A stretch of 59,826 bases of DNA, taken from IMG/VR virus record IMGVR_UViG_3300042362_000235, positions 1 to 59,826 of that record. One strand, 5' to 3'. Below the pieces are notes generated by a model. That model was not told the origin of the DNA. It ran no database searches and saw nothing but the letters and a program-made list of their open reading frames with translations. Positions 13,056 through 36,102 of the stretch are shown here, one piece after another; positions within the stretch are counted from its first letter, which is position 1, and every line of letters starts with the position of its first letter. The DNA comes from a virus (taxonomy: Duplodnaviria > Caudoviricetes). The position numbers and the translations under genes were made by a program.

Positions 13056-13420
13056 CGCTGCGCCTGGACACGTTCAAGCGGGCGCCGAAGTACGGCAACC
13101 GCCGGGTGCCGGCCAGCGACGGCGGCAAGCCCTTCGACAGCCAGGCCGAGGCCCGCCGCTACGCGGAACTGCTGCTGCTGCAGCGCGCCGGCGAGATCAG
13201 CGGCCTGCAGCGCCAGGTGCCCTACGAGCTGGTGCCTGCGCAGCGCGACAGCGCCGGCAAGGCCGTGCGTGCGGTCACCTACGTGGCCGACTTCCACTAC
13301 CGCACCAAGGACGGCACCGCCGTCGTCGAGGACGTGAAGGGCGTGCTGACGCCCGACTACCGCATCAAGGCGAAGCTGATGCTGTGGCGCCACGGCATCG
13401 AGGTCAGGGAGGTGCGCTGA
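13052..13420 (+). CDS. DUF1064 family nuclease-like protein
   Basis: KYGNRRV...FDSQAEARRY...YVADFHY...VVEDVKG. Confidence 0.85.
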   Translation: MTLRLDTFKRAPKYGNRRVPASDGGKPFDSQAEARRYAELLLLQRAGEISGLQRQVPYELVPAQRDSAGKAVRAVTYVADFHYRTKDGTAVVEDVKGVLTPDYRIKAKLMLWRHGIEVREVR

Positions 13421-13989
13421 TGGGGCGCCCGAGCAAGCTGGCGCCGCACCAGTGGGCCGAGGTCGAGCGCAGGCTGCTGGCCGGGGAGGGAGCGAGCGCG
13501 CTGGGACGCGAGTTCGGCGTGAGCGAGGCCGCGATCCGAAAGCGGTTCGGAGAAACGCGGAAGTACGAAAGTGCGAACGTCCAAAAGACGGCCCGGCTGG
13601 TGGCCGACGCCAACGACGCGCTCGAAGCCCTGCCGCCTGCGCAGCGCCAGGTGGCCGTCGCCCTGGCCGACGAACTGCGCGCGATCAGCCGCAACCTCGC
13701 CGCCGCGGCCCGGCTGGGCAGCGCCACGGCACAGATCCTGGCCCAGCAAGCGCACCAGCAGGCGCAGGACGTGAGCGACGAGGCCGGGCTGCGCGCGGTG
13801 GCCATGCTGACCCGCACCGCCAACGAGGCCGCGGCCACGGGCCTGCAGCTGCTGCGCAGCAACGAGAACGTGGTGGCCGACGAGGAGGCCGAGCGCGGGC
13901 GCCAGGCGCGCCGTGTGACGCGGATCGAGATCGTGCCGATGGAGCCCGAGAATGATCGGGTGATGGATGCACCTCGAGGCGAGCGATGA
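13420..13989 (+). CDS. Probable terminase small subunit
   Basis: MGRPSKL, N-terminal HTH, C-terminal VTRIEIV; last core gene before terL. Confidence 0.65.
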   Translation: MGRPSKLAPHQWAEVERRLLAGEGASALGREFGVSEAAIRKRFGETRKYESANVQKTARLVADANDALEALPPAQRQVAVALADELRAISRNLAAAARLGSATAQILAQQAHQQAQDVSDEAGLRAVAMLTRTANEAAATGLQLLRSNENVVADEEAERGRQARRVTRIEIVPMEPENDRVMDAPRGER

Positions 13990-14507
13990 GCGACTTTCTG
14001 TCAATGCAGGCGCAGGCGCGTAGCGATCTCACCGCGCGGTTCACATGCGAGCACGAGCATACCGAGGTTCGGCGGCGCGTCATCAAGGGCGGCGCCGTGC
14101 AGTACGTCCGACAGTGCCTGCGCTGTGGTGAGCCGCAGGGCAACCCCATTGCCAAGGCCAAGGTGTTGGCCGAAAGCGGCGGCGAGCCACCCGATTTCGA
14201 CGACGAACTGAACGAGCAGTGGAAGGCCGAGTACGCCGCCGGGTGGGAAGACATCCGCAAACGCTTCGACCGCGAAGCGTTCTTGAAGGAGTGGTATGCC
14301 GACTATCTGCGCTCTCCGGAGTGGGGCAGACGGCGAGCCGCGGTGATGAGGCGCGCCAACGGCGTGTGTGAGGGGTGTGGCGAGTGCCCCCCGACTGAGG
14401 TGCATCACCTGACCTACAAGCACGTCGGCCGCGAGTTCCTGTTCGAGCTGGTGGCGCTTTGCGAGGGTTGCCACACGCGCGCCCATCAAGACGAGGAGGG
14501 GGTGTAG
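13986..14507 (+). CDS. HNH-type endonuclease
   Basis: YLRSPEW...CEGC..EVHHLTY...LCEGCH. Confidence 0.8.
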   Translation: MSDFLSMQAQARSDLTARFTCEHEHTEVRRRVIKGGAVQYVRQCLRCGEPQGNPIAKAKVLAESGGEPPDFDDELNEQWKAEYAAGWEDIRKRFDREAFLKEWYADYLRSPEWGRRRAAVMRRANGVCEGCGECPPTEVHHLTYKHVGREFLFELVALCEGCHTRAHQDEEGV

Positions 14508-14566
14508 CCCATGCGGTTGGCCCTTGCGACGAGCACGCCGGCATGACTGGCATGCGTCTTGGAGAC

Positions 14567-15424
14567 ATGATGGAGCACCTGAATTACTGCCGCCAACTGA
14601 TGAAGCATTGCAAATCAATGCTGGAGGCGCCCAGCCTTGATCCCGTGGCACGCGCCCTACTCAGCCGCGTGGTGGACTTGCACGGCGCTTCAACCAAGTT
14701 TCATCTTCCCGTTGGCGGGAGGTTGTTCGATGATCCGCAGTACCGCGCGCTGGACGAGTCGCAGCCGCTGCACCTGCCCTACCCATGCATTGCGCTGGAA
14801 TACCAGAGCGGCGGCCGAGAGCGCAGACCAGATGAGCCGATGTGGGGGCGCAACGGACCGACATACGAAGACGATTCCTTCGTCATCGCACCCAAGCGGG
14901 TTGTATTTGCTAGAGAACAAGGCGACTGGATCGTCATCAACGTCGCATTCTGGACGACTGACGACGCGGTTTGGCGCGTGCTCCCAGAGTGCGCGATACC
15001 CAGGACGGGCTATCTTGACCGCGCGAAAGAAGATCGCGGCCGGGTACCGATCAGGTTTGGGCTGGCAGACGAGCGCGTGCCGCTGTCGGACTACATGGAT
15101 GAACTGGGCGCGCTGCTTTGTTTCCTGAACGCGCTGCAGTGTTCAAACGTCCATGTCGAGCGCAGCGAGCCCAAGAAGGCCGGCAAGAAGATTAAGGCCG
15201 CGCTGCCTTTCGACACATACCACTTCCTGACGATTGAGGCACCTGGCAAGGCTGGGTGCGGCACACCGACTGGCGGACACCGTTCGCCCCGCGAGCACCT
15301 GCGACGCGGGCACATCCGTCGCCTGGCAGACGGACGGCGCAGTTGGGTGAACGCCACAGTGGTCGCGGCAGGGCGTGGCGCTGGCGTGGTGACAAAGGAC
15401 TATGCGGTGCGGTGCGCTGCATAA
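14567..15424 (+). CDS. Hypothetical phage protein with C-terminal HxRRGH motif
   Basis: SPREHLRRGHIRR; lower GC; stop TAA lies in the attC1 core (GCATAAC). Confidence 0.7.
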   Translation: MMEHLNYCRQLMKHCKSMLEAPSLDPVARALLSRVVDLHGASTKFHLPVGGRLFDDPQYRALDESQPLHLPYPCIALEYQSGGRERRPDEPMWGRNGPTYEDDSFVIAPKRVVFAREQGDWIVINVAFWTTDDAVWRVLPECAIPRTGYLDRAKEDRGRVPIRFGLADERVPLSDYMDELGALLCFLNALQCSNVHVERSEPKKAGKKIKAALPFDTYHFLTIEAPGKAGCGTPTGGHRSPREHLRRGHIRRLADGRRSWVNATVVAAGRGAGVVTKDYAVRCAA

Positions 15425-15470
15425 CGCCCGAGTTCAGCCGCCGTAGGTCGGCTGGAACGAAGTGTTAGGC
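15419..15470 (-). mobile_element. Integron attC site 1 (52 bp)
   Basis: Minus strand GCCTAAC-acttc-GTTCCAGC-CGA-CC-TAC-GG-CG-GCTGAAC-tcgggc-GTTATGC: R'', L'' with extra C, unpaired A, L', R'. Confidence 0.88.
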
Positions 15471-15487
15471 AGCATGTTGGAGAAACG

Positions 15488-15805
15488 ATGAGACAGACGC
15501 ACGAATGGCCCGGCCACTGGACGCGAGTAGCGCCCAGCGTGGAAGACCACCCGCAGGGCGGCGAACTGGCCTGGATGGCGCGTGGCTACCCGTTCACCCG
15601 CCCGGTGCTGGCGCGCTCGAATGTGGGCGTGAAGCGTGCGCCGACGTGGGCAGCAATGGAGCCGGTGTACCAACAGTTTGTGCGCGTCGAGTTGATGGCC
15701 GACAACTTCCACGGCCAGGACGCCAGCAACTTCGGCTGGTTCCGCGACTTGGAGTGGCTGGGGCCGCTGGTGCTGCCTAACGCCCGAGGTAAGCCGCGCC
15801 GCTAG
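15488..15805 (+). CDS. Cassette ORF, hypothetical
   Basis: GGAGA RBS; between attC1 and attC2; stop codon falls in the attC2 loop. Confidence 0.65.
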   Translation: MRQTHEWPGHWTRVAPSVEDHPQGGELAWMARGYPFTRPVLARSNVGVKRAPTWAAMEPVYQQFVRVELMADNFHGQDASNFGWFRDLEWLGPLVLPNARGKPRR

Positions 15806-15831
15806 GCGTCGGCTTGAGCGAAGTGTTAGGC
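15775..15831 (-). mobile_element. Integron attC site 2 (57 bp)
   Basis: Minus strand GCCTAAC-acttc-GCTCAAGC-CGA-CGCC-TAGC-GGCG-CG-GCTTACC-tcgggc-GTTAGGC. Confidence 0.9.
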
Positions 15832-15855
15832 GTCTTGGTGAGCGGAGAGGAAACG

Positions 15856-16158
15856 ATGGAATACACAGCGACTTTGCCGACCGAGGTTGGCGCCTACCGG
15901 CACCGCTGGTCCGATGCGCGCGGCACACTGCGAGAGCAAGTGCTGTTCGTTGGCTACACCAACGCCAGCGCGCCTCGCTTGCAGGGCGACAGGCCAAACG
16001 CCTACATGCCGCGCAAGCTGAAGTGCTGCCGGCCTGACGAGCACCTACACGCCGACAGACTGACGCCGGCCGAGTGGGGCGGGTGGTGGGCGCGCATTGA
16101 GACGCCTAACGCAGAAGTAACCGGCCTTGGCCGCAACAGGAGCAACGATGAACGATGA
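15856..16158 (+). CDS. Cassette ORF, hypothetical
   Basis: GGAGAGG RBS; reads into attC3 and stops in its loop. Confidence 0.65.
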   Translation: MEYTATLPTEVGAYRHRWSDARGTLREQVLFVGYTNASAPRLQGDRPNAYMPRKLKCCRPDEHLHADRLTPAEWGGWWARIETPNAEVTGLGRNRSNDER

Positions 16159-16198
16159 ACTTTCGCCGGCCAAGGTCCGGTTGACTGACGGGTTAGGC
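16104..16198 (-). mobile_element. Integron attC site 3 (95 bp)
   Basis: Minus strand GCCTAAC-ccgtc-AGTCAACC-GGA-CCTTGGCCG...CGGCCAAGG-CC-GGTTACT-tctgc-GTTAGGC. Confidence 0.88.
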
Positions 16199-16456
16199 CC
16201 GCTGGTGGATGCCGAGATGGCGGCTTACTACGAGGGTGAATATGGTGACCACAGCACGGCCCGCGCCCGACTGCTGGACTTTGCGCGGGCGGTGATCGCA
16301 TCCGAGTGCGTGGATCTGAGACAGGCCGCCGAGTACGCGGCGCACAAACTTGAAGGGGCGCGCATCTGGAACGGGCAAGAGTGGCACTACAACCCGCTGC
16401 ACCCGCTGCACTACCGGAGCGCGCTGGAGCGCCTGCGCGATGCGCTGCGGGCCTAA
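16148..16456 (+). CDS. Cassette ORF, hypothetical
   Basis: AGGAG RBS and ATG inside the attC3 loop; stop TAA inside the terminal core GCCTAAC (16451-16457). Confidence 0.7.
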   Translation: MNDELSPAKVRLTDGLGPLVDAEMAAYYEGEYGDHSTARARLLDFARAVIASECVDLRQAAEYAAHKLEGARIWNGQEWHYNPLHPLHYRSALERLRDALRA

Positions 16457-16474
16457 CGCGAAATAGACAAACCC

Positions 16475-17809
16475 GTGGCCGAAACCCGCCGCATCGAGAT
16501 CCCACCCAAGCTCATCCCGGTCTTCTCCGGCGCCGCCGACGTGCGCGGCGCCTGGGGCGGACGCGGCTCCGGCAAGACGCGCAGCTTCGCCAAGATGACC
16601 GCGGTGCGCGCCTATGCGTTCGCCCAGGCCGGCATCAGCGGGCAGATCCTGTGCGGCCGGCAGTTTCAGAACAGCCTGGCCGACAGCTCGCTGGAGGAGA
16701 TCAAGCGGGCGATCGAGGACGAGCCCTGGCTGGCCGACGCCTTCGAGGTCGGGGAAACCTACGTGCGCACGCGCGACGGCCGGGTGAGCTACACCTTCGC
16801 GGGCCTTGAACGGAACATCGACAGCATCAAGTCCAAGGGCCGCATCCTGCTGTGCTGGGTGGACGAGGCCGAAGGCGTCAGCGACCACGCCTGGGACGTG
16901 CTGGCGCCGACGCTGCGGGAGGAGGGTGAGGGCTGGTCGGCCGAGCTATGGGTGACGTGGAACCCGAAGCGCCGCGGCTCGGCCACCGATCGCCGGTTCC
17001 GCCAGGCCAAGGATCCGCGCATCAAGGTCGTCGAGCTCAACTGGCGCGACAACCCGCGCTTCCCGGCGGTGCTGGAGCGCCAGCGCCAGCGCGACCTGGC
17101 CGAGCGGCCGGACACCTACGACTGGGTGTGGGAGGGCGCCTATGCCACGACGGTGGCCGGCGCCTACTACGCCAAGCACTTGACCGCGGCGCGCGCGGCT
17201 GGCCGCATCGGCCGGGTGGCGCCCGATCCGCTGATGACCCTGCGGGCGTTCACCGACATCGGCGGCACGGGCAAGCGCGCCGACTCCTTCGTCTGGTGGG
17301 TGGCCCAGTTCATCGGGCGCGAGGTCCGGGTGCTGGATCACTACGAGGCGGTGGGCCAGCCGCTGGAGGCCCACCTGACCTGGGCGCGCAACCGCGGCTA
17401 CACCCACGAGCGCATGCAGGTCTGGCTGCCGCACGACGGCGTGACCCACGATCGCATCTACGACGTGACCTACGAGTCGGCGCTGACGCGCGCGGGCTAC
17501 AACGTCACCATCGTGCCCAACCAGGGCGCCGGCGCGGCCATTGCCCGCATCGAGGCGCTGCGTCGGGTGTTCCCCTCGACGTGGTGGGACAGCGAGCGGT
17601 GCGCCGCCGGCCTCGAGGCGCTGGGTTGGTACCACGAGAAGCGCGACGAAGTGCGCGACGTGGGCCTGGGGCCGGAACACGACTGGTCGAGCCACAGCGC
17701 GGACGCGGCCGGGATGATGGCCATCGTCGCCGAGGATCACATGCGCAGCGGCACCCAGTCGGCCGCGGCGCAACTGTTCAAGCGGCGCCGCAGCGGCATG
17801 GCCGTCTGA
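16475..17809 (+). CDS. Terminase large subunit (PBSX-like)
   Basis: Walker A GGRGSGKT, Walker B CWVDEAE, TWNP, C-terminal HDWSSHSADA nuclease motif. Confidence 0.93.
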   Translation: MAETRRIEIPPKLIPVFSGAADVRGAWGGRGSGKTRSFAKMTAVRAYAFAQAGISGQILCGRQFQNSLADSSLEEIKRAIEDEPWLADAFEVGETYVRTRDGRVSYTFAGLERNIDSIKSKGRILLCWVDEAEGVSDHAWDVLAPTLREEGEGWSAELWVTWNPKRRGSATDRRFRQAKDPRIKVVELNWRDNPRFPAVLERQRQRDLAERPDTYDWVWEGAYATTVAGAYYAKHLTAARAAGRIGRVAPDPLMTLRAFTDIGGTGKRADSFVWWVAQFIGREVRVLDHYEAVGQPLEAHLTWARNRGYTHERMQVWLPHDGVTHDRIYDVTYESALTRAGYNVTIVPNQGAGAAIARIEALRRVFPSTWWDSERCAAGLEALGWYHEKRDEVRDVGLGPEHDWSSHSADAAGMMAIVAEDHMRSGTQSAAAQLFKRRRSGMAV

Positions 17810-17832
17810 CCCCCCGCCGGCCCTGGCCGGAA

Positions 17833-17853
17833 TCGTGACAAGCATGGCACCGT
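17833..17853 (+). promoter_or_regulatory. Putative late-promoter motif, copy 1 (TCGTGACAAGCATGGCACCGT)
   Basis: Recurs at 22356, 23813, 23835, 37519 and 40360, each time upstream of a virion gene. Confidence 0.65.
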
Positions 17854-17884
17854 CGCCCGCGGTTCAACGCTGCGGGGCTCGCCA

Positions 17885-18301
17885 ATGGGCGTCACTCTCG
17901 ATCTGCGCCGGGCGCATCTCAGCCGCTACCACGGCGACATCCTGGCGATCTACACCTGGGTCAACGACGAGCGCGCGCTGGTGCTGATGCCGGCGTTCCG
18001 CAAGGGCGCGCCCTGGTACATCGTGTGCGAGTCGGCCGCGTTCAAGTACGACGACCCGACCTACCTGGCCACGCAGTGCGTCAAGGCGTGCGAGGTGCTG
18101 GGCCTGGAGCCCAGCCGCGCCAACTGGGTGCGCGTGGCGTCGATCATCCACGATGGGCTGCCAGACCTCATCCGCATGCCGTCGGCGCCGCCGGCCGAGT
18201 ACCTGCGCGGCTCGATGGGCGCGATGGAACTCCGCGCCGACGGGCAGGTGATTGCCGGCGACGACATCCGCATCGAGCGCGAGGGCGCTACCTATGGCTG
18301 A
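17885..18301 (+). CDS. Conserved hypothetical protein upstream of the portal
   Basis: Strong GC3 bias; overlaps the portal start. Confidence 0.75.
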   Translation: MGVTLDLRRAHLSRYHGDILAIYTWVNDERALVLMPAFRKGAPWYIVCESAAFKYDDPTYLATQCVKACEVLGLEPSRANWVRVASIIHDGLPDLIRMPSAPPAEYLRGSMGAMELRADGQVIAGDDIRIEREGATYG

Positions 18302-27389: not shown

Positions 27390-29747
27390 GTGGCCATCAT
27401 CCGCTTGGGCGGGTTTGCTGGGGAGAACCGCGCGCTGCATCCATCGCTCTTGCCGGAGTCGGTGGGGGTGGCCAGCCGCAACCAACGGCCAGGCCGCGGC
27501 GATCTGCGTCCGTGGCGGCAACCGTCTACGGTGGCCACGGTGCCAGCGGGGCGGCAAACCATCTACCGAATGGGCCGCGACACGGCGACCGACGCCACGT
27601 ACTGGCTGAGCTGGGCCGGCACGGTGCATGCGGTGCGCGGCTTCGATCCCAACGACACCACCGAGCGCACCTACTACACCGGCGACGGCATCCCCAAGGT
27701 CACCGACAACACCGCGCTCGACGGCGTGGGGACGCAGGACAACCCGGGCGCCAACTGGCGCCCGCTCGGCGTACCTGCGCCCGCTACTGCGCCCACGGTG
27801 GCTGCTGTGGCCGCACCCGCAGTCGCCGACGCTGGCAAGTTCGAGTTCGTCATCGACGATGCGACGATCGCCGGCCTGACCGTGGGCGCAGTGCTGCGGT
27901 TCACGCGGATCATCGACGGGACCGACCAGACTGCGCAGCAGATCACGCTGACGGCGGGGCAGGGTGGCGGTGTCACGCGGGCGTCGCTGGCCGGGCAGAT
28001 TGACGCGCTGCAAGGCTTTGACGCCACCGCGCAGGACGGCGCCAGCGGGGCCGTGGCCGGCGTGCGTGTCATCACAAGCGTTGTCGGCGTGGGGTTTCGA
28101 GTCGACAAGAAGACGAGCACTACGCAGAGCTACGACCCGGCGGTCGTCACCTACGCCAACCTGTTCGGCGGGCAGGCTGCAGGCACCGCGGCAGCGGGGC
28201 AAGTCCCTGCTGGTCCTGCCGTCATCACGATCGCCAGCACGTCGATCAATGCCACCGACACGCCTGTCGGCGATGTGTGGGCCTTGACGATCAACGGCGC
28301 CCAGCCGGTCAGGGTCACGTTGCCGGCAGGTGCCGGCACATTCCCGCCAGCGGTGACGGCAGCCAGTCTCGCAAGCGCGCTGAGCGTGGCCGGCGTCGCG
28401 GCATCGGTGGTTGTTGCAGCCAACGGCGTCACGCAGGACGTGCGCGTGCAAACACAGGCTGCTGGCACGGCCGCCACACTGCTGATCCGGCGGGTCAGCC
28501 CAGCCGCATCCGATGTGTTTTCAGCCATCGGTGTTGGCAACGAAATTGGTCAGACCGAGGCTACCAAGGTGACGACGTTCTACGTCTACACCTACGTGAC
28601 CGACTGGGGCTGGGAAAGCGCTCCAAGCCCTCCCAGCGCCGAGCTCACCCGCGCGGGCGACGCGACGGCGACCATCAGCGCGTTCGCCACGCCGCCCGCG
28701 GGCAACTACGGCATCAACAAGCTGCGGATCTACCGCACGCAGACCGGCGCCAGCGGCGCGACGGACTTCTTCTTCCTGCGCGAGATTGCCCTCGGCACGG
28801 CCAGCACCACGGACGACAACCGCGACTTGGGCGAGCCGCTCCCGACCACGACCTGGGTGATGCCGCCTGCCGACATGACCCACCTGACGGCGCTGTGGGC
28901 TGGCATGCTGGCTGGCATCAGCGGCAACCGCGTGCGGTTCTCCGAGCCGTTCACCGCCTACGCCTGGCCGGAGGAGTACGACGTGATCCCGCCGGACTCC
29001 AAGCCGGTGGCGCTGGGTGTCTTCGGCCAGCAACTGCTGGTGCTGACCACCGGGCGCCCGCTGCTGGTGACCGGCTCCAGCCCCGACTCGCTCGACCAGC
29101 AGCCGCTCGAGCTGCCGCAGGGCTGCGTCTCGGCGCGATCGGTCGTCAGCATGGGTTCGGGCGTAGCGTGGGCCAGCGAGGACGGCCTGTGCTGGTACGG
29201 CGTGGGCGGCGCTCGCGTGCTCACTGCCAGCGTCATGCGGCGCGAAGACTGGCAGGCGCTGGCCCCCAGCACCATCGTCGGCCGGCTTTACGAGGGCATG
29301 TACTTTGGAAGCTACGACGACGGCAGCGGCCGCAAGGGCTTCATGATCGACCCGGCCAACCCGCTGGGCATCTATTTCCTTGATGCCGGCTACGAGGGCA
29401 TGCACTTCGACGAGTTGCGCGACCAGCTCTACGTTCTGTCGGGCACGTCCGTGCAGAAGTGGGATGCGGGCACGAGCCTGATGACTTGCCGGTTCCGCAG
29501 CAAGGTCTTCAGGGCACCACAGCCCCTCAACTTCGCGTGCGCAGAAGTGAAAGCAGACGCCTTTCCAGTCACCCTACGCATTTGGGCCGACGGTGTGTTT
29601 CGCCACACACAGACGGTCTCGAACATCGCTGCGTTCCGGCTGCCTGGCGGGTTCCTGGCCGACGAGTGGCAGTTCGAGGTGGAAAGCTCTGCCGCGGTGC
29701 AAAGCGTGGCGGTCGCGACCAGCGTCGAAGAACTTGCGCAGGCTTGA
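27390..29747 (+). CDS. Probable tail nozzle/stabilisation protein
   Basis: FAGEN..GDLRPW, YVYTYVTDWGWESAPSPPS, FSEPFTAYAWP, GCVSARS, FRLPGG. Confidence 0.7.
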   Translation: MAIIRLGGFAGENRALHPSLLPESVGVASRNQRPGRGDLRPWRQPSTVATVPAGRQTIYRMGRDTATDATYWLSWAGTVHAVRGFDPNDTTERTYYTGDGIPKVTDNTALDGVGTQDNPGANWRPLGVPAPATAPTVAAVAAPAVADAGKFEFVIDDATIAGLTVGAVLRFTRIIDGTDQTAQQITLTAGQGGGVTRASLAGQIDALQGFDATAQDGASGAVAGVRVITSVVGVGFRVDKKTSTTQSYDPAVVTYANLFGGQAAGTAAAGQVPAGPAVITIASTSINATDTPVGDVWALTINGAQPVRVTLPAGAGTFPPAVTAASLASALSVAGVAASVVVAANGVTQDVRVQTQAAGTAATLLIRRVSPAASDVFSAIGVGNEIGQTEATKVTTFYVYTYVTDWGWESAPSPPSAELTRAGDATATISAFATPPAGNYGINKLRIYRTQTGASGATDFFFLREIALGTASTTDDNRDLGEPLPTTTWVMPPADMTHLTALWAGMLAGISGNRVRFSEPFTAYAWPEEYDVIPPDSKPVALGVFGQQLLVLTTGRPLLVTGSSPDSLDQQPLELPQGCVSARSVVSMGSGVAWASEDGLCWYGVGGARVLTASVMRREDWQALAPSTIVGRLYEGMYFGSYDDGSGRKGFMIDPANPLGIYFLDAGYEGMHFDELRDQLYVLSGTSVQKWDAGTSLMTCRFRSKVFRAPQPLNFACAEVKADAFPVTLRIWADGVFRHTQTVSNIAAFRLPGGFLADEWQFEVESSAAVQSVAVATSVEELAQA

Positions 29748-29748
29748 C

Positions 29749-32700
29749 GTGACCCAGCGAAACGATCTACCCCCAGCAACGTCCGTCAACTTCGAGCAGC
29801 GCGTTCGCGAAACGCTGATGACGTACCTGGGGCGTCAAGGCGATCCACTGGACCGCGGCGTCACGCTGCGCGATCTCGTCGATGCCGGCATCGCCAAGGT
29901 GTCGGACCGATACCTGTCGCGGCGCGGCGGGCCGCAAGGCGGCGGGCCTGTGCTCATCCCGGGAAGCGCAGAGTCTGCGGAACGGGACTTGACCCCGCCG
30001 CCAACGCCCACCGGGTTCAAGGTGACGGCCGGCATCTCTCACGTCTTCATCGAGCACGATGTGCCGCGCTATACGCAGGGCCGCGGGCACTTGAGGACGC
30101 ACGTCTACGCTGCAGCCGTCAACGAAGGCCAGGGGCTCCCCACGTTCGATGCGGCAGCCCCGGTGGGCCAGTTCGAGGGGACGTTCTACGCGCTGCCGAC
30201 AAACCCTTCGACGACGCTGTGCCTGTGGATCAAGTGGGAAACGCGCGATCAGGTCTTGAGTGTCGGCCCTGCCGGGGGCATCAACGGCCTGCAAGTCACT
30301 ACCGGCCAGGACGTATCTCTGCTGCTGGACGCACTCACGGGGGCGATCACCGAAGGCCAGCTCTACCAGACGCTGCGTGACCGCATCGACCTCATCGACG
30401 GCGTGCAGCCGGGGTCGGTCAACGACCGCATCCAGACTGAAGTCGGCAACCGTGCCGCCGCGCTCCTGGCGGAGGCTGACGCCCGGGCTGCAGCCGACGC
30501 AATCCTGTCGGCGGTCCAAGGAGCTTTTGGGGGAAGCGCCGGGCAGCTTGCGGCAGCAGTCCAGATCGAACAGCAGACGAGAATTGACCAAGACGCCGCA
30601 CTAGCTTCCCGGTCTGAGTTCGTGGCCGCGCAGTCGGCCAGCTCTGCCGCGGCCGTCGTTGTCGAGCAGCAAGCCCGATCCGACGCCGACTCAGCCATGG
30701 CGTCGCAGACCACCGCCCTGGCGGCGCGCCTGGGCGACAACGCCGCCGCGCTCCAGCTTGAGCAGCAGGCCAGGGCGGATGCCGATTCATCGCTGTCCTC
30801 GCAGGTGCTCACGCTGTCGTCTGCCGTCGGCGATGCCGACGCCGCCATCGAGGTCGAGCAGCAGGTCCGCGCCAGCGCGGATTCCGCCGTCGCCTCGCAG
30901 GCCACCACGCTGGCCACGGCGCTGGGCGCCAACTCTGCCGGCCTGTTCGAGGAAGCCCAGGCCCGCACCACGGCCGACGCGGCGGCCTCCAGCGTCGTCG
31001 CAGGGCTCAACGCCGCAGCCGGCGCCAACTCGGCCGGGCTGCTGACCGAGCAGCAAGCGCGGGCGGATGCCGACAGCGCCGCCGCGTCGAGCGTGGCGTC
31101 GCTGTCCGCGGCCGCCGGCAGCAACGCCGCGGCCATCGTGGCCGAGCAGACGACCCGGGCCAACGAAGACTCGACGCTGTCCAGCCAGATCACGACGCTG
31201 TCGAGCGACTACAGCACCAACAAGGCGCTGGTGCAGTCGCAGATCACGACGCTGACCAATGCCGACAGCGCCTTCGCCCAGCAGATCAACACCGTCCAGG
31301 CCGTGGCCAATGGGGTTGCGTTCGAGCCCGCAATCTCTTGGAACTTCGATGCCACCGTCGAGGGGTGGAACGTCGGCGGCGCGACGGGCTCCATCGTCAG
31401 GGGCGCGCTGCGGGTTGTCTCGACCGGCACCGACCCGATCATCAGCTCGCCGACGGCCTTAAGCGTCAACGGCGCCGTCAACACGCTGATCCGGGCTCGC
31501 GTGCGCCGGCTCGCCGGCACCGGCTGGCAGGGGCAGGTCTACTACTCCACCGCCGGCCACGGCTGGACGGAGGGGTTCCGCAAGATCATCCCGGACACCA
31601 CCGTCCTCAACGAGTGGCGCGTGCTCGAGTGGGACATGGCGGCGCTGACGACCGGCGGCAACGACTGGATCACCAGCACCATCGACACCATTCGCATCGA
31701 CCTGGGGACGACCGCGTCCGACCAGTTCGATGTCGACTGGATCGCCATCGGCCGCACGGGACAGGTCGCCTACACCGCGGCCATCCAGCAGGAATCGAGC
31801 GCCCGAGCCACCGCGGTTGGCACCATCGAGTCCAGGTTCACCGTCAAGGTGAACGCGGCGAACCACGTTGCCGGCTTCGGCCTCATCGCCACGGCCAACA
31901 ACGGCACGACGGTCAGCGACTTTGGCGTTGCCGCAGACCGCTTCTTCATCGCCCCGGCCGCCGTGGCCCAGGCCACCGCGCCCAGCGCAAACCTGTACAG
32001 CGGCTTCGTGTGGCTCGACACCAGCGTGACGCCCAACGTCACCCGGTACTGGAACGGCTCGACCTGGACGACGACCCCGCCCCGGCTGCCGTTCATCGTG
32101 CAGGCCACGCCGACCACGATCAACGGCGTGAGCGTGCCGGCCGGCGTCTACATCGACACGGCCTTCATCCGCGACGGCACGATCACCAGCGCGAAGATCG
32201 GCAACGCGACCATCGACAACGCCAAGATCGCAGACGTATCGGCCGGCAAGATCACTGGCGGCGCGATGCAGGTGGGCTCGTTCATCCAGTCGACGAACTA
32301 CACCAGCGGGACCAGCGGAGCCGGGTGGCGCATCAACGCTGACGGCACCGCAGAGCTTCAGGCCGCCTACATCCGGGGCAACATCTCCGCAGCGAACATT
32401 GGCGCCAACACGATCACGGCCGACAAGATCGACACCCGCGGCCTCGACATCAAGGATGCCAGTGGCAACGTCATCTTCTCGTCCGGGGTCAACCTTGCTT
32501 CCAGCCGCGTCAACCCGGCCGCCGGCTGGCTGAACTCCAACATCACGGTCAGCGCAGGCCAGCTCGCCGGCATCGGCACGCCGGGCGTCGTGGTGGACAA
32601 CTCGTACCAGACCATCGGCCAGAACCTGCTTCCGGCCTCGGACCAGACGCAGGGCTCAACGTGGATGCGGGCCTACAGCCCCAACGGGGCGACGTTCAAC

Positions 32701-35700
32701 AACGGTTCGGGCGGCGTTTTCCCGCAGCTTTCGCGCCTGATCTGGTCGACGGCACCAAACAGCAACCTATTCGTCCTTCGCGGCGGCACGCTGAATTCCG
32801 TGGCAGTTCAGCAGACCAACCGCCACACCGGCACCGTAGACGGCGACAACGACGGTTCCAGCAATACGACTGCAGCCGACTTTGTCTTTGGCATCGCCAG
32901 CGGCATCTACATCGACACCGAGCAGCACGCATGGGTGCCGGTCACCCCGGGCGAGCGCATCTGCGCCTCGGCCTACGTTGCCACGCACCGCTGCCGGACG
33001 CTGCTGTTCATTGCCTTTCAGTCGTTCGATGACAACGGGAACGTCACGGAGTCTTACGCAGGCTTTGTGGAGCCGACCTCCAGAACGACGTGGTCCGCAG
33101 ACGGGCAGACCCGTCGACTTGACCAGTTCCAGCGCCCCTACGTCGTTGCCACGGTGCCTGCCGGGGCAACTCGCGCGGGCCTTCGCATCCGCAAGTACAA
33201 CACGGTTGCCGGTCAATCAGATTCGTGGGTCTGGATCGCCGGCCCGCAGATCGAGAAGGTCGCCGCCAACACTACCGGCCCGAGCCCGTACATGCCCGGC
33301 CCGCCGTCCGACACCCGGCAGCTTGGCTTTGCAGGCGACATCGACGCTCAGCGCAACAGCCGCATCACGGTCGACGGCAGCGGCGTGCTTCAGGGCGTTG
33401 GTACGACCGGCGTCACCGTCGCCAACAACCAGATCGGCATCAACGCCAGCGGTCAGGTCTATGGGCTCGGTGCTGGCAACGGGATCGCGGTCAGCAACAA
33501 CCAGATCACCGTCAATTCAGACGGCCAGCTTGCCGGCATTGGATCGTCGGGGGTCGTTGTCGACGTTGACTACGCCCCGAGCGACTCCAACGCCATCACC
33601 GACCCCAACTTCACGAAGTACGCCACCGGCCGGCTGGGTCACTTCAACCTATGGAATGGCTGGTCGATCACATCCACCGCGGGAGAAAACAACTCCCCGG
33701 GCGCGATTCTCAATGTCACGGGGGGCGGGGTATTTCGGGACATCTACCATCGCCGCCGCATCGTGGCCGAGCCTGGAGAGCGCTGGTACATCCGTGCCCG
33801 TATTCGCGTCAGCGCATCGTTTACCGACGGCGGCGGCCTGATGCTTGGCTGCAGCTCGCTCAACTCCAGCGGCACCGACTTGGCGAACTGGCCTGCCATC
33901 AGCGTCAACACTAGCGTCAGCGGGGGCATTGCCCGAAACACCTGGGTGTGGGTCGAGGGCGAGATCACAACTTCGCCGTCGCTTGCCATTGCATACGTCC
34001 AGCCTTGGATCAGCGTTCGTGAAACTGCCGCGGACGGCACTGTGCGAGTGTCGTACTGGTACTTCGGCAAAGTGGCCCAGGGCGCGACTGTCGGCGCAAC
34101 GTGGGGCACGAACGTCTCAGGCCGACCGTCGAACCTTGCCGGCCTGTCGGGCAGCGAGGCGATCCAGAACACACAGATCACGGTCAGCAACGGCGCCATC
34201 CAGGGCATCGGCACAGGCGCCGGCACGCTGATCGACGCCACGAAGGTCGCGGGCGACAACCTGATCCCTGACCCGACCTTCCTGAACCCGGCCTACTGGA
34301 CGGGCGGGTGGGAAGCCACCCCAGGCAGCACCTTCGCGTCGATGTCCGCGTTCCGGTGGGTCAGCAGCGGCGCTGCCAACGAGCCGCCAGCAGCGCTGCA
34401 GTTAAACAACTCCGCCGGCAGCGGCGACTTCACCGGAGGACGCATCGTTGTCGAGCAAGGCGGCACATACCGGTTGCGGATGCGCGTTTACAAGGCTGGC
34501 GCGTGTTCGGGCGTGGTGTGGGCGGGTTTGCACGTTCCCAATCAGGCGTGGTGGACGGCGCTGCCGCAGAACACTCCCGGCGACCCGACGGCCGGTATCA
34601 ACTGGTCAGCCATTCCGCAAGACGCCTGGGCGACCTATGAGTCGTTCTTGACCGTCACTGGGGCCGGTACGGCGCAGATGCAGCCCCGCATCCGCAACGT
34701 CATCACGGCTGGCAACTTCTACTTCACGATGGAGTTGCAGCGGGCGACGACCGCTGAACTGTTCCGCGTGCAGTACGGGACCGGCAACCTGATGCGGAAC
34801 TCCAGCTTCGAGCTTTACACGGGCACAAGCGGGATCCCGGATACGTTCCAGCTCATCGGCGCGAACGGTGCGACGGTGACGCCTTCGGTCGTGACGTCCC
34901 CCGCCCTGCACGGAAGCCGCGCGTTCCAGATCGCCGTGACCAGCACGACTGGCGCGTCCGGCGTCGGCGTGATCTACGGCCAGACCGCGGCCGATGCGGT
35001 CACTGTGGTCGAGGGGCTGCGGTACTGTCTGTCGGGCTACTTCCGCAGCACAACGACGGCGTACAGGGCGCGCCTGGACATCCTGTGGTACTCCGACGCA
35101 GCCGCGACCGTGCAGGTTGGCTCGACCGTTGCATACGACCAAGCTCTGACGACGGCCAACGCTTGGGAGCGCGTCACGGCGCCTGCCGTTGTCGCGCCGT
35201 CAGGAGCCGTGCGGGCGCGCGTGCGCGTTGGGCTGCAGCGGCCCAGTACCGGAGACACGACCCTGGGAACGGTCCAGATTGACGCCGTGCAATTCCAGGC
35301 GTCTGACGCCTCCACTGCGTACAACGTCAGCCAGTTTGACAAGGTCGGAACCGACAACCCGATCAACACGGCCAACATCTCGACGTACATCGCGGCTGGC
35401 GCCATTGGCAACGCCTACATCGGCAACTTCATCCAGTCGACGAACTTCAACGGGGTCATCGACGAGAGCGGCAACATCACCAGCAACGGCACTGTTGGCT
35501 GGGCTATTGGCAAGGGCGGCCAGCTCGTAGCGCACTCCGGCACGTTCCGGGGGACGGTGTCGGCAGGAAGCAGCCCTGCGGTCAGTGGCAACACGATGAG
35601 CGGCTCGGGTGCCGTATTCAACCCGAGCGGCACGTTCGCCATCGGCAACTCGTCCGGCAACCTGTCCTTCAACGGCACGACGCTGACGGTCAACGGCAAC

Positions 35701-36102
35701 CTCATCGCTACCGGCAACCTGCAGGCCAACGCAATCACCAAGAGCTACGGCGTGACGTCCACGAGCGCCACTGGTACTGGCGCAGGCTCTCAGACGGCGG
35801 CCATCATCACGGTGACAAACAGCAACACCGAGATTTCGATCTTCTCTGGCGGAATTGTCAACGGCGCGGGTGGTAGTGGAAACGCGACCCTCCAGCTCCA
35901 GCGGTACGAAGGCAACAACCCCGGCAACAAGGTCAACCTGACCACCCTGTTCGGCCCCATCGACGTTCCGTTCGGCGCCGTCTTCTCGTTCCCGCCATTC
36001 GTCGATGTCCGCAACGCGGGTACGTTCACCTACGAAATCTGGAAGACGACCGGCCCAGGCATCGGCGCCAGGACGATCCTGCTTCAGGAGTTCAAGCGAT
36101 GA
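29749..36102 (+). CDS. Large tail fibre/host-specificity protein (~2117 aa; coiled coil, DUF1983-like region, several CBM-like modules)
   Basis: EQQARADAD repeats, FTVKV..HVAGFGL..ADRFFI, AFIRDGTITSAKIG, repeated NL(I/L)..F module starts. Confidence 0.8.
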   Translation: MTQRNDLPPATSVNFEQRVRETLMTYLGRQGDPLDRGVTLRDLVDAGIAKVSDRYLSRRGGPQGGGPVLIPGSAESAERDLTPPPTPTGFKVTAGISHVFIEHDVPRYTQGRGHLRTHVYAAAVNEGQGLPTFDAAAPVGQFEGTFYALPTNPSTTLCLWIKWETRDQVLSVGPAGGINGLQVTTGQDVSLLLDALTGAITEGQLYQTLRDRIDLIDGVQPGSVNDRIQTEVGNRAAALLAEADARAAADAILSAVQGAFGGSAGQLAAAVQIEQQTRIDQDAALASRSEFVAAQSASSAAAVVVEQQARSDADSAMASQTTALAARLGDNAAALQLEQQARADADSSLSSQVLTLSSAVGDADAAIEVEQQVRASADSAVASQATTLATALGANSAGLFEEAQARTTADAAASSVVAGLNAAAGANSAGLLTEQQARADADSAAASSVASLSAAAGSNAAAIVAEQTTRANEDSTLSSQITTLSSDYSTNKALVQSQITTLTNADSAFAQQINTVQAVANGVAFEPAISWNFDATVEGWNVGGATGSIVRGALRVVSTGTDPIISSPTALSVNGAVNTLIRARVRRLAGTGWQGQVYYSTAGHGWTEGFRKIIPDTTVLNEWRVLEWDMAALTTGGNDWITSTIDTIRIDLGTTASDQFDVDWIAIGRTGQVAYTAAIQQESSARATAVGTIESRFTVKVNAANHVAGFGLIATANNGTTVSDFGVAADRFFIAPAAVAQATAPSANLYSGFVWLDTSVTPNVTRYWNGSTWTTTPPRLPFIVQATPTTINGVSVPAGVYIDTAFIRDGTITSAKIGNATIDNAKIADVSAGKITGGAMQVGSFIQSTNYTSGTSGAGWRINADGTAELQAAYIRGNISAANIGANTITADKIDTRGLDIKDASGNVIFSSGVNLASSRVNPAAGWLNSNITVSAGQLAGIGTPGVVVDNSYQTIGQNLLPASDQTQGSTWMRAYSPNGATFNNGSGGVFPQLSRLIWSTAPNSNLFVLRGGTLNSVAVQQTNRHTGTVDGDNDGSSNTTAADFVFGIASGIYIDTEQHAWVPVTPGERICASAYVATHRCRTLLFIAFQSFDDNGNVTESYAGFVEPTSRTTWSADGQTRRLDQFQRPYVVATVPAGATRAGLRIRKYNTVAGQSDSWVWIAGPQIEKVAANTTGPSPYMPGPPSDTRQLGFAGDIDAQRNSRITVDGSGVLQGVGTTGVTVANNQIGINASGQVYGLGAGNGIAVSNNQITVNSDGQLAGIGSSGVVVDVDYAPSDSNAITDPNFTKYATGRLGHFNLWNGWSITSTAGENNSPGAILNVTGGGVFRDIYHRRRIVAEPGERWYIRARIRVSASFTDGGGLMLGCSSLNSSGTDLANWPAISVNTSVSGGIARNTWVWVEGEITTSPSLAIAYVQPWISVRETAADGTVRVSYWYFGKVAQGATVGATWGTNVSGRPSNLAGLSGSEAIQNTQITVSNGAIQGIGTGAGTLIDATKVAGDNLIPDPTFLNPAYWTGGWEATPGSTFASMSAFRWVSSGAANEPPAALQLNNSAGSGDFTGGRIVVEQGGTYRLRMRVYKAGACSGVVWAGLHVPNQAWWTALPQNTPGDPTAGINWSAIPQDAWATYESFLTVTGAGTAQMQPRIRNVITAGNFYFTMELQRATTAELFRVQYGTGNLMRNSSFELYTGTSGIPDTFQLIGANGATVTPSVVTSPALHGSRAFQIAVTSTTGASGVGVIYGQTAADAVTVVEGLRYCLSGYFRSTTTAYRARLDILWYSDAAATVQVGSTVAYDQALTTANAWERVTAPAVVAPSGAVRARVRVGLQRPSTGDTTLGTVQIDAVQFQASDASTAYNVSQFDKVGTDNPINTANISTYIAAGAIGNAYIGNFIQSTNFNGVIDESGNITSNGTVGWAIGKGGQLVAHSGTFRGTVSAGSSPAVSGNTMSGSGAVFNPSGTFAIGNSSGNLSFNGTTLTVNGNLIATGNLQANAITKSYGVTSTSATGTGAGSQTAAIITVTNSNTEISIFSGGIVNGAGGSGNATLQLQRYEGNNPGNKVNLTTLFGPIDVPFGAVFSFPPFVDVRNAGTFTYEIWKTTGPGIGARTILLQEFKR

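Follow-up and report, generated by a model that had tools for sequence, protein, structure and literature searches.

The question raised by this locus is why three small genes that seem to be carried as integron cassettes in a phage genome should all lie on the strand opposite to that expected of cassette genes. In the standard integron model, strand selection at the attC site orients promoterless genes for expression from the Pc promoter. Within the window, the whole 59,826-nt stretch that was analysed, positions 15419-16457 hold three attC hairpins and a terminal half-site, which bound three cassettes; on one side of these is a phage accessory gene and on the other terL, the gene for the large terminase. 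The surroundings are those of a phage: terL (16475..17809, +; Pfam Terminase_3, 1.8e-19; phrog_3717, 1e-59) is the first backbone gene past the array, accompanied by a P22-like portal (2.7e-153) and an HNH endonuclease in a one-directional gene order.

Judged by its sequence, the array is a CALIN (cluster of attC sites lacking an integron integrase) of three cassettes lodged in a prophage between the accessory gene and terL, with three attC sites of a single polarity within 780 nt and intI not nearby. It is not a complete integron: the sole TIGR02249 match of the genome is on contig C260 and not on the array contig, C252, the neighbours of the array are a phage gene on one side and terL on the other, and a scan of 13900-16700 found neither promoter-like sites nor + strand terminator-like sites. 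Nor are the cassettes canonical, as all three ORFs are on the attC bottom strand and each attC is 5' of its gene.

The hairpins themselves are, by their sequence, genuine attC sites. Read on the + strand, attC1 (15419..15470) runs from GCATAAC to GTTAGGC, while attC2 (15775..15831) and attC3 (16104..16198) both run from GCCTAAC to GTTAGGC, so that each has inverse core sites of the form RYYYAAC ... GTTRRRY. attC3 is a long site with a loop of about 33 nt. As single-stranded DNA the + strand is predicted to fold at -12.8, -19.6 and -26.2 kcal/mol for attC1, attC2 and attC3 (z = -3.5, -3.9 and -5.0), and for each hairpin 0/200 shuffled controls folded equally well. In all three sites the 3' arm of the + strand shows a bulged T, six paired bases and a bulged G with identical spacing, the extrahelical bases occur on one arm only, and internal loops of 5-7 nt adjoin the core helix. 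The 5' core of attC1 is mismatched to its GTTAGGC partner, as is expected for a hybrid junction with a target site; a near-identical copy of attC1 occurs on contig C295 of the same genome. Over >90% of its length, attC2 shares 82-86% identity with the attC sites of the aadB, catB8 and arr cassettes, and it matches 4486 plasmid records; in 2796 of these the match spans at least 80% of the query. Hairpins were sought across the genome with a strict version of the scan, the relaxed version giving 400 mostly spurious matches.

We infer from hairpin structure and homology that the + strand of the window is the bottom, recombinogenic strand of these sites, because three tests agree: the 3'-arm bulges, the alignment with the aadB and catB8 sites, and the geometry of the host IntI locus. 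Against the bottom strand of the aadB attC, attC1 is identical at 44/60 positions (38/61 when reversed) and attC2 at 50/60 (42/61 when reversed). When the class 1 integrons L035 and L036 are oriented as the window's + strand, their resistance genes are all on the - strand and intI1 is on the + strand at the right. The same geometry is seen on C260, where intI (456 bits against a TIGR02249 cut-off of 265) is on the + strand, to the right of attC sites that share the polarity of those in the window.

The cassettes, with boundaries at RYYYAA/C, are Z (15425..15780, +; attC1, RBS and the ORF1 core, ending in CCTAA), Y (15781..16109, +; attC2, RBS and the ORF2 core) and X (16110..16456, +; attC3 with a start site in its loop, then ORF3, ending at the core TAA). 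Each unit, read on the + strand, thus consists of a C, an attC hairpin, an RBS either after or inside the loop, an ORF and RYYYAA. From this order it follows that the attC precedes its own gene as a 5' leader instead of trailing it at the 3' end. The distance from attC to ATG in the array cassettes is only 17-24 nt. The end of the unit provides a built-in TAA, and frames that miss it stop within 8-16 codons in the hairpin of the next unit. The core TAA serves as the stop codon of ORF3 (16454-16456) and also of the 292-aa upstream gene (14546..15424, +, from ATG 14546 in an ORF open from 14459), whose TAA at 15422-15424 lies within the left-most core, GCATAAC. This upstream gene, which matches no family in Pfam, PHROG or NCBIfam, was considered as a fourth cassette and rejected: the sequence upstream of it has neither an attC nor a clear core site, and it is therefore excluded from the array.

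ORF1 (15488..15805, +; 105 aa, 23 homologues) continues for 8 codons into attC2, where the loop supplies its stop codon (TAG 15803-15805). ORF2 (15856..16158, +; 100 aa, 75 homologues) extends 16 codons into attC3; its TGA, at 16156-16158, lies in the loop of that site, so that its end overlaps the start of ORF3 by 11 nt. ORF3 (16148..16456, +; 102 aa, 31 homologues) starts at ATG 16148 within the same loop, preceded by AGGAG; a second ATG at 16155 is out of frame. Its first 17 codons are the 3' arm of attC3 (ending DGLGP, from GGGTTAGGC), and its last Ala codon and stop are the GCC TAA of the terminal core.

In alignments of the three families, conservation ends exactly at the core site. ORF1 relatives are conserved to LVLPN and diverge beyond, the ORF2 family core ends at ARIETPN and is followed by variable tails, and ORF3 relatives share a conserved C-terminal segment of about 50 aa that mostly ends in LRA; at least 8/22 of the latter also have the leader through GLG(P) at their start. 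None of the three ORFs belongs to a Pfam, PHROG or NCBIfam family or to a toxin-antitoxin family, and in a protein atlas ORF1 had no usable match and ORF3 only sub-threshold (0.86), virus-only clusters. A profile search of the genome contigs with the ORF1 alignment gave one match of 14 residues in an unrelated genome, which was taken as chance.

The preliminary description had placed all attC sites in one polarity with every ORF on the opposite (bottom, here +) strand, and the bulges, the aadB/catB8 alignments, the homologues and codon-position GC, which favours the + strand for ORF1, ORF2 and ORF3 alike, all bear this out (gene calls were made with a crude codon-position GC filter rather than a trained gene finder). 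It was also right about the two stops in attC loops, about the AGGAG and ATG in the loop of attC3 and the attC-encoded start of ORF3, and about the AACGATG shared by all three starts; this motif occurs nine times in the window where 5.1 copies are expected, four of them within 15484-16157 and three at the ORF starts. Loops related to that of attC3, with RBS and ATG, occur in C260, C295, G246 and L040. Among long attC sites, a loop RBS and ATG is found in only 4/16 from phage arrays and 7/66 from chromosomal arrays, and is thus a trait of a subclass and not a defining one.

Is the reversed layout a peculiarity of this locus? An 18-nt attC arm is common to chromosomal arrays and viral contigs, and both were scored by the same metric. 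Coding was on the bottom strand at 48/69 viral loci, mixed at 20/69 and on the top strand at 1/69, a tally that covers rows with GC of at least 0.58 and a single attC sequence type and whose rows are interdependent, the 73 rows of the survey coming from about 68 contigs, with some clearly representing one phage in different samples. The four IntI-linked chromosomal arrays of the host genus gave 16 top, 9 mixed, 3 bottom and 4 with no coding among 32 sites, in line with the earlier statement that integron cassettes usually have the opposite arrangement. Counted by ORF, these arrays have 36/54 on the top strand. In G246, which has at least 16 attC sites, 13/14 array ORFs are on the bottom strand, and in the C295 array all ORFs are on the + strand, one shadow ORF excepted. 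The reversed layout thus appears to be the rule in phage DNA and the exception in the chromosomal integrons of the hosts. The suggestion of a phage-adapted cassette class is partly supported by this recurrence in viral contigs. Against strict phage specificity, the host's own integron on C260 also begins with two bottom-strand cassettes.

These two C260 cassettes, the 18/54 ORFs on the bottom strand in chromosomal arrays and the minority status of loop start sites can also be taken to favour another account. Ordinary cassettes from the host pool may have entered phage DNA, the first insertion setting the polarity and only ORFs co-directional with phage transcription being kept, with no special phage class and no leader role for attC. 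Insertion at secondary sites with expression from a resident promoter is described in the available text of one study (10.1101/2022.09.11.507474). However, if the first polarity were random, about half of phage arrays should be top-strand, far from the 1 top versus 48 bottom observed. Phage-type families are also enriched in bottom-strand cargo, and members of the ORF1, ORF2 and ORF3 families keep the same polarity and junction across many contigs. We regard this account as unlikely, though as the likeliest of the alternatives.

The cargo can be compared directly. PHROG matches were found for 7/19 ORFs of phage arrays; in chromosomal arrays they were found for 2/17 top-strand ORFs (both at E of about 1e-4) and for 3/10 bottom-strand ORFs, the latter including a Lar-like anti-restriction protein (8e-14) and a DNA methyltransferase (1.4e-41). 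Bottom-strand cassettes thus often seem to encode phage-type proteins, as the preliminary description had supposed. Relatives of ORF1 and ORF3 are found in phage operons lacking attC, and a relative of cassette Z occurs in the C295 array with 85% DNA identity.

The cassettes also recur in other contexts, with similarity breaking at core sites, an indirect sign of their mobility. A contig from metagenome run X3 carries 15775-16124, that is cassette Y, with six differences and with unlike DNA on both flanks, and the first six letters of the 5' core of the 69-nt attC upstream of ORF1 homologues differ among L016/L024, L022 and L023. A source of integrase is at hand. The host genome (G000) encodes an intact integron integrase away from the array, its one IntI match over the cut-off; 60/71 genomes of the genus also have a match over the cut-off, and 0/10 viral records do.

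At the right-hand end, the terminal half-site GCCTAAC (16451-16457) has no partner arm and is followed by a conserved sequence, GCGAAATAGACAAACC, up to the start of terL (half-site and flank, 16451..16474, +). In contigs related through terL, similarity extends only from 16451-16455 rightwards, in 4/4 metagenome runs. At the other end, matches of relatives in other metagenomes to the region of the upstream gene stop at about 13942-14017, and both this gene and the array lie in a variable island of lower GC (13950-16456). Metagenome contigs searched for an empty site showed the junction breaks, and none bridged 13942 to 16455; a DNA search of 61 relatives with 14546-16700 gave short attC matches only and no related prophage. 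Among 222 genomes of the genus, CTAACGCGAAATAGAC is found in this genome only. A 15-mer of the flank matches 10 viral stretches, which is near chance for its length, although 5 of these share four further letters; no IntI was found in the viral records matching the 15-mer, and a literature search for the flank sequence string gave nothing relevant. If one were to guess, the terL-side flank might be an attI-like docking site. The terminal half-site of the C295 array is followed by the same flank, and an identical 17-nt flank in two prophages of one genome could mean that the array end was spread by homologous exchange and not by independent IntI insertion.

This shared flank after two arrays could also be read as a sign that part of the chromosomal integron became attached to phage DNA with no action of IntI on the phage; illegitimate recombination, inexact excision of a prophage or a wrongly assembled metagenome bin could each have this result. 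The source genome is a 304-contig draft, and L016, an IMG/VR locus with the ORF1 cassette, looks chimeric, with a palindromic start and a jump in GC. Against such a capture or artefact, the array is enclosed in a 59.8-kb contig, where phage genes precede and follow it, both its ends fall exactly on core sites, the same terL-proximal junction is present in independent metagenomes with other DNA to its left, and similar arrays occur on many long viral contigs. This makes the explanation highly improbable.

Still less credence can be given to the view that the true genes are canonical ones on the minus strand and that the + strand ORFs are shadows of GC-rich DNA. Long minus-strand ORFs do exist (15434..15997, 187 aa; 16002..16505, 167 aa), but this reading is already contradicted by their codon-position GC (0.73/0.60/0.63 and 0.67/0.73/0.55), which is not coding-like, by their running across attC2, attC3 and the terL start, and by the 23 to 75 homologues of the + strand ORFs, with invariant W, P and G columns. 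That the hairpins only look like attC sites and are in truth intergenic structures of the phage, such as terminators, REP-like repeats or regulatory stems, is just as hard to credit, for although they are intergenic, GC-rich and palindromic and an Rfam search gave no family at threshold and only two sub-threshold chance matches, their cores, bulges and spacing fit attC sites, their identity to resistance-cassette attC sites is high, the same site types flank the C260 intI and fill the IntI-linked arrays of the genus, and no T-run follows the stems.

The reading that we favour, and consider probable, is that the host IntI shuffles a phage-borne pool of cassettes in which the attC is the gene's own 5' leader. 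This array may have originated when IntI inserted a cassette at a secondary GTT ('attG') target that overlaps the upstream gene's stop codon. The host IntI would then excise units and re-insert them, moving them between the chromosomal integron and prophages of the same cell. These units would have no promoter and be expressed through read-through transcription from the phage. Each of them brings its own start and stop of translation, so the cassettes would remain translatable in whatever order they stand, and the message running towards terL would thus remain covered by ribosomes.

A fuller version can be offered only tentatively, as somewhat short of an even chance. Phages of this bacterial group may own a reversed cassette pool, with attC as 5' leader, sometimes a start codon in the loop, a core TAA at the end, and accessory or anti-defence genes as cargo. 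[quoted passage not shown] Some cassettes perhaps arose in phage operons, from genes caught between two insertions.

The sedentary chromosomal integrons of the host genus (C260, L069, L074, L075 and L076) have the same attC cores and polarity rules as the window array. However, the genus chromosomal arrays have intI and attI, homogeneous attC sites of 126-135 nt and mostly top-strand ORFs, whereas the window array has no intI, heterogeneous short and long attC sites and bottom-strand ORFs only. The array also resembles the morons and accessory hot spots that occur by the packaging module of phages, in having small, variable, lower-GC genes between conserved backbone genes and presumably co-transcribed with them. 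Unlike its units, which are bounded by attC cores and recur as units elsewhere, morons have no site-specific recombination boundaries. The Vibrio cholerae superintegron, with its reverse-oriented toxin-antitoxin cassettes, likewise has genes on the strand that Pc does not drive. Toxin-antitoxin cassettes carry their own promoters. The window cassettes differ from these in their short attC-to-ATG gap, in lacking a promoter-like site and in encoding no toxin-antitoxin family. In the available text of two reports, the orientation of toxin-antitoxin genes in an array is mentioned together with a strand rule (PMC13108822), and an 'own promoter' is mentioned for a phage-borne toxin-antitoxin cassette (PMC9892861).

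Clusters of attC sites in phages have already been published, and what may be new here is the orientation rule. Qi et al. (2023, Front Microbiol, PMC9892861) report, in the part of the article available, 3 integrons, 1 In0 and 17 CALINs in 10,705 phage genomes, recombination of phage attC sites with IntI1, and methyltransferase cargo. Their CALINs resemble the window array in being attC arrays without intI in phage or prophage DNA. That same part of the article gives cassettes 'oriented in the same direction' as the typical case, and contains neither the bottom-strand genes, nor the translation signals in attC loops, nor the contrast with host arrays, all of which are present here. Loot et al. 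(bioRxiv 10.1101/2022.09.11.507474), in their accessible text, describe IntI inserting cassettes at genomic GWT sites ('attG'), where they are expressed from a resident promoter only and can be excised again. The window array resembles such insertions in having a short GWT target outside attI and attC, its left junction being G/TTATGC on the minus strand. It differs in having a phage operon as its target, genes on the opposite strand and several cassettes in a row, whereas the cassettes in the attG study, as far as its text was available, have canonical polarity. The rate of translation of a cassette is reported to govern downstream expression (PMC11511950, from a partial text). Our literature searches found no phage orientation rule, and no statistics on cassette ORF orientation were found in the available portions of 10.1101/030866, 10.1101/2023.11.21.568050 and 10.1101/2024.07.02.601686.

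A prediction that follows is that surveys assuming canonical orientation mis-annotate or overlook such units. If the favoured reading is true, attC could be used as a portable translation leader. The reading also offers a testable route by which new cassettes could be made out of phage genes, and so has a bearing on the origin of cassettes. Integron integrases would then double as machinery for the exchange of genes between phages, and chromosomal integrons and prophages would trade a distinct class of cargo that includes anti-restriction genes.

The prophage makes up most of the window, which is one contig (C252) of a draft genome of 3.78 Mb (304 contigs, 71% GC). Genes for an HTH protein (13420..13989), an HNH endonuclease (13986..14507) and a 292-residue protein of no known family (14546..15424) are followed by the attC region (15419-16457), terL (16475..17809; Terminase_3) and a P22-like portal gene. 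The structural half contains three very long plus-strand ORFs (29593-36102, 40411-46134 and 46135-57378; 2169, 1907 and 3747 aa). Within the attC region lie three imperfect hairpins, attC1 (15419-15470), attC2 (15775-15831) and attC3 (16104-16198), each bounded at the left by GCATAAC or GCCTAAC and at the right by GTTAGGC, together with a fourth, lone GCCTAAC. Folding of the plus strand as single-stranded DNA gives z = -3.5, -3.9 and -5.0, respectively, equalled by none of 200 shuffles.

The hairpins head three plus-strand cassettes, Z (15425-15780), Y (15781-16109) and X (16110-16456), each reading attC hairpin, ribosome-binding site, ORF, RYYYAA. The ribosome-binding site lies 17-24 nt past the hairpin or, in cassette X, within the hairpin loop. 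The core TAA serves as the stop for two frames, those of the upstream gene and of ORF3 (cassette X, 16148..16456). In ORF1 (cassette Z, 15488..15805) and ORF2 (cassette Y, 15856..16158) the core is instead translated as Pro-Asn, and the stop comes 8 and 16 codons further on, respectively, in the neighbour's loop. The ORF2 stop and ORF3 start overlap by 11 nt within the attC3 loop. The coordinates of the preliminary description hold with one correction: the in-frame start codon of ORF3 is the ATG at 16148. The AACGATG that it noticed at the ORF starts does recur, occurring nine times in the window versus 5.1 expected, with four copies clustered in 15484-16157. No promoter-like site and no plus-strand terminator-like site was found in 13900-16700.

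At 82-86% identity, attC2 matches 4486 plasmid records, and in 2796 of these the match covers at least 80% of the site; the sequences hit are attCs belonging to cassettes such as aadB, catB8 and arr. In the orientation of the window's plus strand, two annotated class 1 integrons have all their resistance genes on the minus strand and intI1 on the plus strand, at the right. Against class 1 sites so oriented, attC1 is identical at 44/60 positions (38/61 reversed) and attC2 at 50/60 (42/61 reversed), and this better alignment makes the plus strand the counterpart of the bottom strand of known attCs. In all three sites the 3' arm of the plus strand has a bulged T, six pairs and a bulged G; by the published rule, such extrahelical bases identify the 3'-terminal arm of the attC bottom strand. 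Another contig of the same genome, C260, encodes an intact integron integrase (TIGR02249, 456 bits; cut-off 265), the 5' end of which faces attCs polarised as in the window, the standard geometry. These three lines agree that, by sequence, the plus strand corresponds to the attC bottom strand, in keeping with the earlier proposal that the cassette ORFs are inverted relative to their attCs. The bottom strand is described as recombining about a thousandfold better than the top, which fixes cassette orientation relative to Pc (PMC13108822).

That the genes are on the plus strand is borne out by codon-position GC and by homologue families. The values for ORF1 (0.68/0.50/0.85), ORF2 (0.62/0.55/0.76) and the post-attC part of ORF3 (0.75/0.45/0.81) are coding-like. 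Long minus-strand ORFs were rejected as genes; they span the attCs and their codon-position GC is not coding-like. Homologues number 23, 75 and 31 for ORF1, ORF2 and ORF3. ORF1 relatives are conserved through ...LEWLGPLVLPN, with unrelated tails beyond, and ORF2 relatives through ...WGGWWARIETPN, diverging beyond. ORF3 relatives have the C-terminal ~50 residues in common and mostly end exactly at ...LRA, the final Ala and stop being the GCC TAA of the core. At the other end, at least 8 of 22 proteins in the ORF3 alignment start with a leader of variable sequence that passes into GLG(P), encoded by the GGG TTA GGC of the other core. Conservation in all three families thus ends where integron crossover, taken as RYYYAA|C on the plus strand and quoted as G|TTRRRY (PMC9892861), would part the units. 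The N-terminal halves of the ORF3 family are mosaic: in two relatives the half shared with the window protein is joined to a C-terminal part that is unrelated, pointing to recombination within cassette genes.

The orientation of these genes differs from that of most ORFs in IntI-linked chromosomal arrays of the host genus. IntI above the cut-off is present in 60 of 71 genomes of the genus, and four IntI-linked arrays, each with 12-25 homogeneous attCs of 126-135 nt, formed the chromosomal comparison set. With a simple, crude codon-GC caller, the top strand has 36 of their 54 ORFs and the bottom strand 18, versus three of three on the bottom strand in the window. The array ORFs of C295, a second prophage of the same genome, are also on the bottom strand, apart from an overlapping shadow ORF on the opposite strand. 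So are 13 of 14 array ORFs in G246, a 36.9-kb viral contig that has terminase and tail genes besides its 16 or more attCs. A sample independent of ORF homology was drawn by scanning IMG/VR for an 18-nt attC arm also found in the chromosomal arrays; of 119 stretches, 80 loci were taken, giving 73 rows from about 68 contigs after duplicate removal. Coding within about 700 nt was scored by strand (at least 80% on one strand). The 69 viral rows with GC at least 0.58, which cover one attC type and are not independent, some evidently being the same phage, divide into 48 bottom, 20 mixed and 1 top, whereas the 32 chromosomal sites with this arm in the four arrays divide, by the identical metric, into 16 top, 9 mixed, 3 bottom and 4 with none. 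IntI exceeded the cut-off in none of ten viral records tested.

In C260 (829-1700) the two cassettes nearest attI carry bottom-strand ORFs, in the direction of intI. One of these has its ribosome-binding site and ATG in an attC loop (1245), stays open across the attI region to 1658, where it either overlaps the start region of intI or falls just short of it. In another genome of the genus, two full-length integron integrase genes face each other at a distance of about 11 kb (G021:C2:183400-196100).

On the bottom strand, 4 of 16 long phage-array attCs and 7 of 66 chromosomal attCs have a loop start, counted as a ribosome-binding site plus ATG inside the hairpin with an ORF of at least 30 codons past the site. 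None was found on the top strand of 14 phage-array or 66 chromosomal attCs. A closely similar loop (AGGAG-type ribosome-binding site, AACGATGA) is common to the window, C260, C295, G246 and L040, although the proteins encoded downstream of it are unrelated. The loop start is a trait of a subclass, not a general one.

The cargo appears to be of phage type, as had been proposed. Distant ORF1 relatives (52-61%) and one relative of the ORF3 domain lie in small-gene operons of ordinary phage type, where no attC is near; on this evidence ORF1 and ORF3 belong to families of phage genes, one branch of which moves in cassettes. In a PHROG search, 7 of 19 ORFs (seven from C295, eleven from G246 and one bottom-strand ORF of C260) gave matches, five with E below 1e-9, including a PAPS-reductase moron family. 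In two chromosomal arrays, matches were obtained for 2 of 17 top-strand ORFs, both near 1e-4, and for 3 of 10 bottom-strand ORFs, including a Lar-like restriction-alleviation protein (8e-14) and a DNA methyltransferase (1.4e-41). Lar-like anti-restriction proteins and orphan DNA methyltransferases are typical of phage counter-defence; at the far end of one IntI-linked chromosomal array (L069, 3137-4700) they are encoded by two bottom-strand cassettes with short attCs.

The units recur elsewhere. Besides C252, two contigs of the genome bear attCs: C260, a true integron, and C295, whose six attCs and terminal half-site all have the polarity of its coding strand and which includes a relative of cassette Z with 85% DNA identity. 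Among close ORF1 relatives (at least 74% identical, from metagenome and viral contigs), an attC ends 17-18 nt before the ATG in 5 of 16 loci examined. The first six letters of the left core of one 69-nt attC differ between contigs, as expected if crossover separates them from the attC. Contigs of four lake or freshwater metagenome runs (four studies) were compared with 13400-18300. Matches to terL relatives begin at 16451-16455 and extend rightwards only, the DNA to the left being unlike (for 1170 bases in one contig); one contig carries cassette Y (15775-16124) with 6 differences and unlike DNA on both sides. On the left, backbone similarity stops near 13942-14017. GC is 0.59-0.67 in 13950-16456 and 0.70-0.75 around it. 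These breaks and the lower GC together mark the HNH gene, the 292-aa gene and the cassettes as a variable island, one that is not common to the related phages of the four metagenomes. The viral contig L016 (1-1400) is probably an assembly chimera: it starts with part of its ORF1 homologue in inverted copy, and past the attC array its GC falls from about 65% to about 40%. Its PAPS-reductase-like gene stops 6 nt short of the first core GCATAAC.

The 17 nt past the terminal half-site (GCGAAATAGAC, A or C, AACC) are identical in the two prophages (window 16457-16474; C295 7917-7933), preceding terL in one and an excisionase-like gene in the other. The motif was found in none of 221 other genomes of the genus; a 15-mer of it occurs in 10 IMG/VR stretches, five of which share four more letters and a small inverted repeat. 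The flank may be a docking site of attI type or a regulatory site, or may be due in part to chance.

Integrons and CALINs (attC clusters without an integrase) in phage genomes have been reported (PMC9892861), as have CALINs in general (10.1101/030866). The literature search returned no systematic bottom-strand placement of genes in phage DNA (the supplementary tables of PMC9892861 could hold orientation data), no contrast between phage cassette polarity and that of the hosts' own arrays, and no attC used as the 5' leader of a gene whose start codon lies in the attC loop.

The first cassette may have been inserted into the phage at a secondary GTT site that overlaps the upstream gene's stop codon; on the minus strand the left junction reads G|TTATGC. 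IntI insertion at GWT 'attG' sites, with expression from a resident promoter and re-excision, has been described (10.1101/2022.09.11.507474). Host IntI would then have added or exchanged later cassettes, and the units would be transcribed solely by read-through of the phage operon. Since each unit carries its own leader, start and stop, any cassette order would be translatable. Cassette translation is reported to govern the fate of the downstream message (PMC11511950), and thus expression of terL would be protected.
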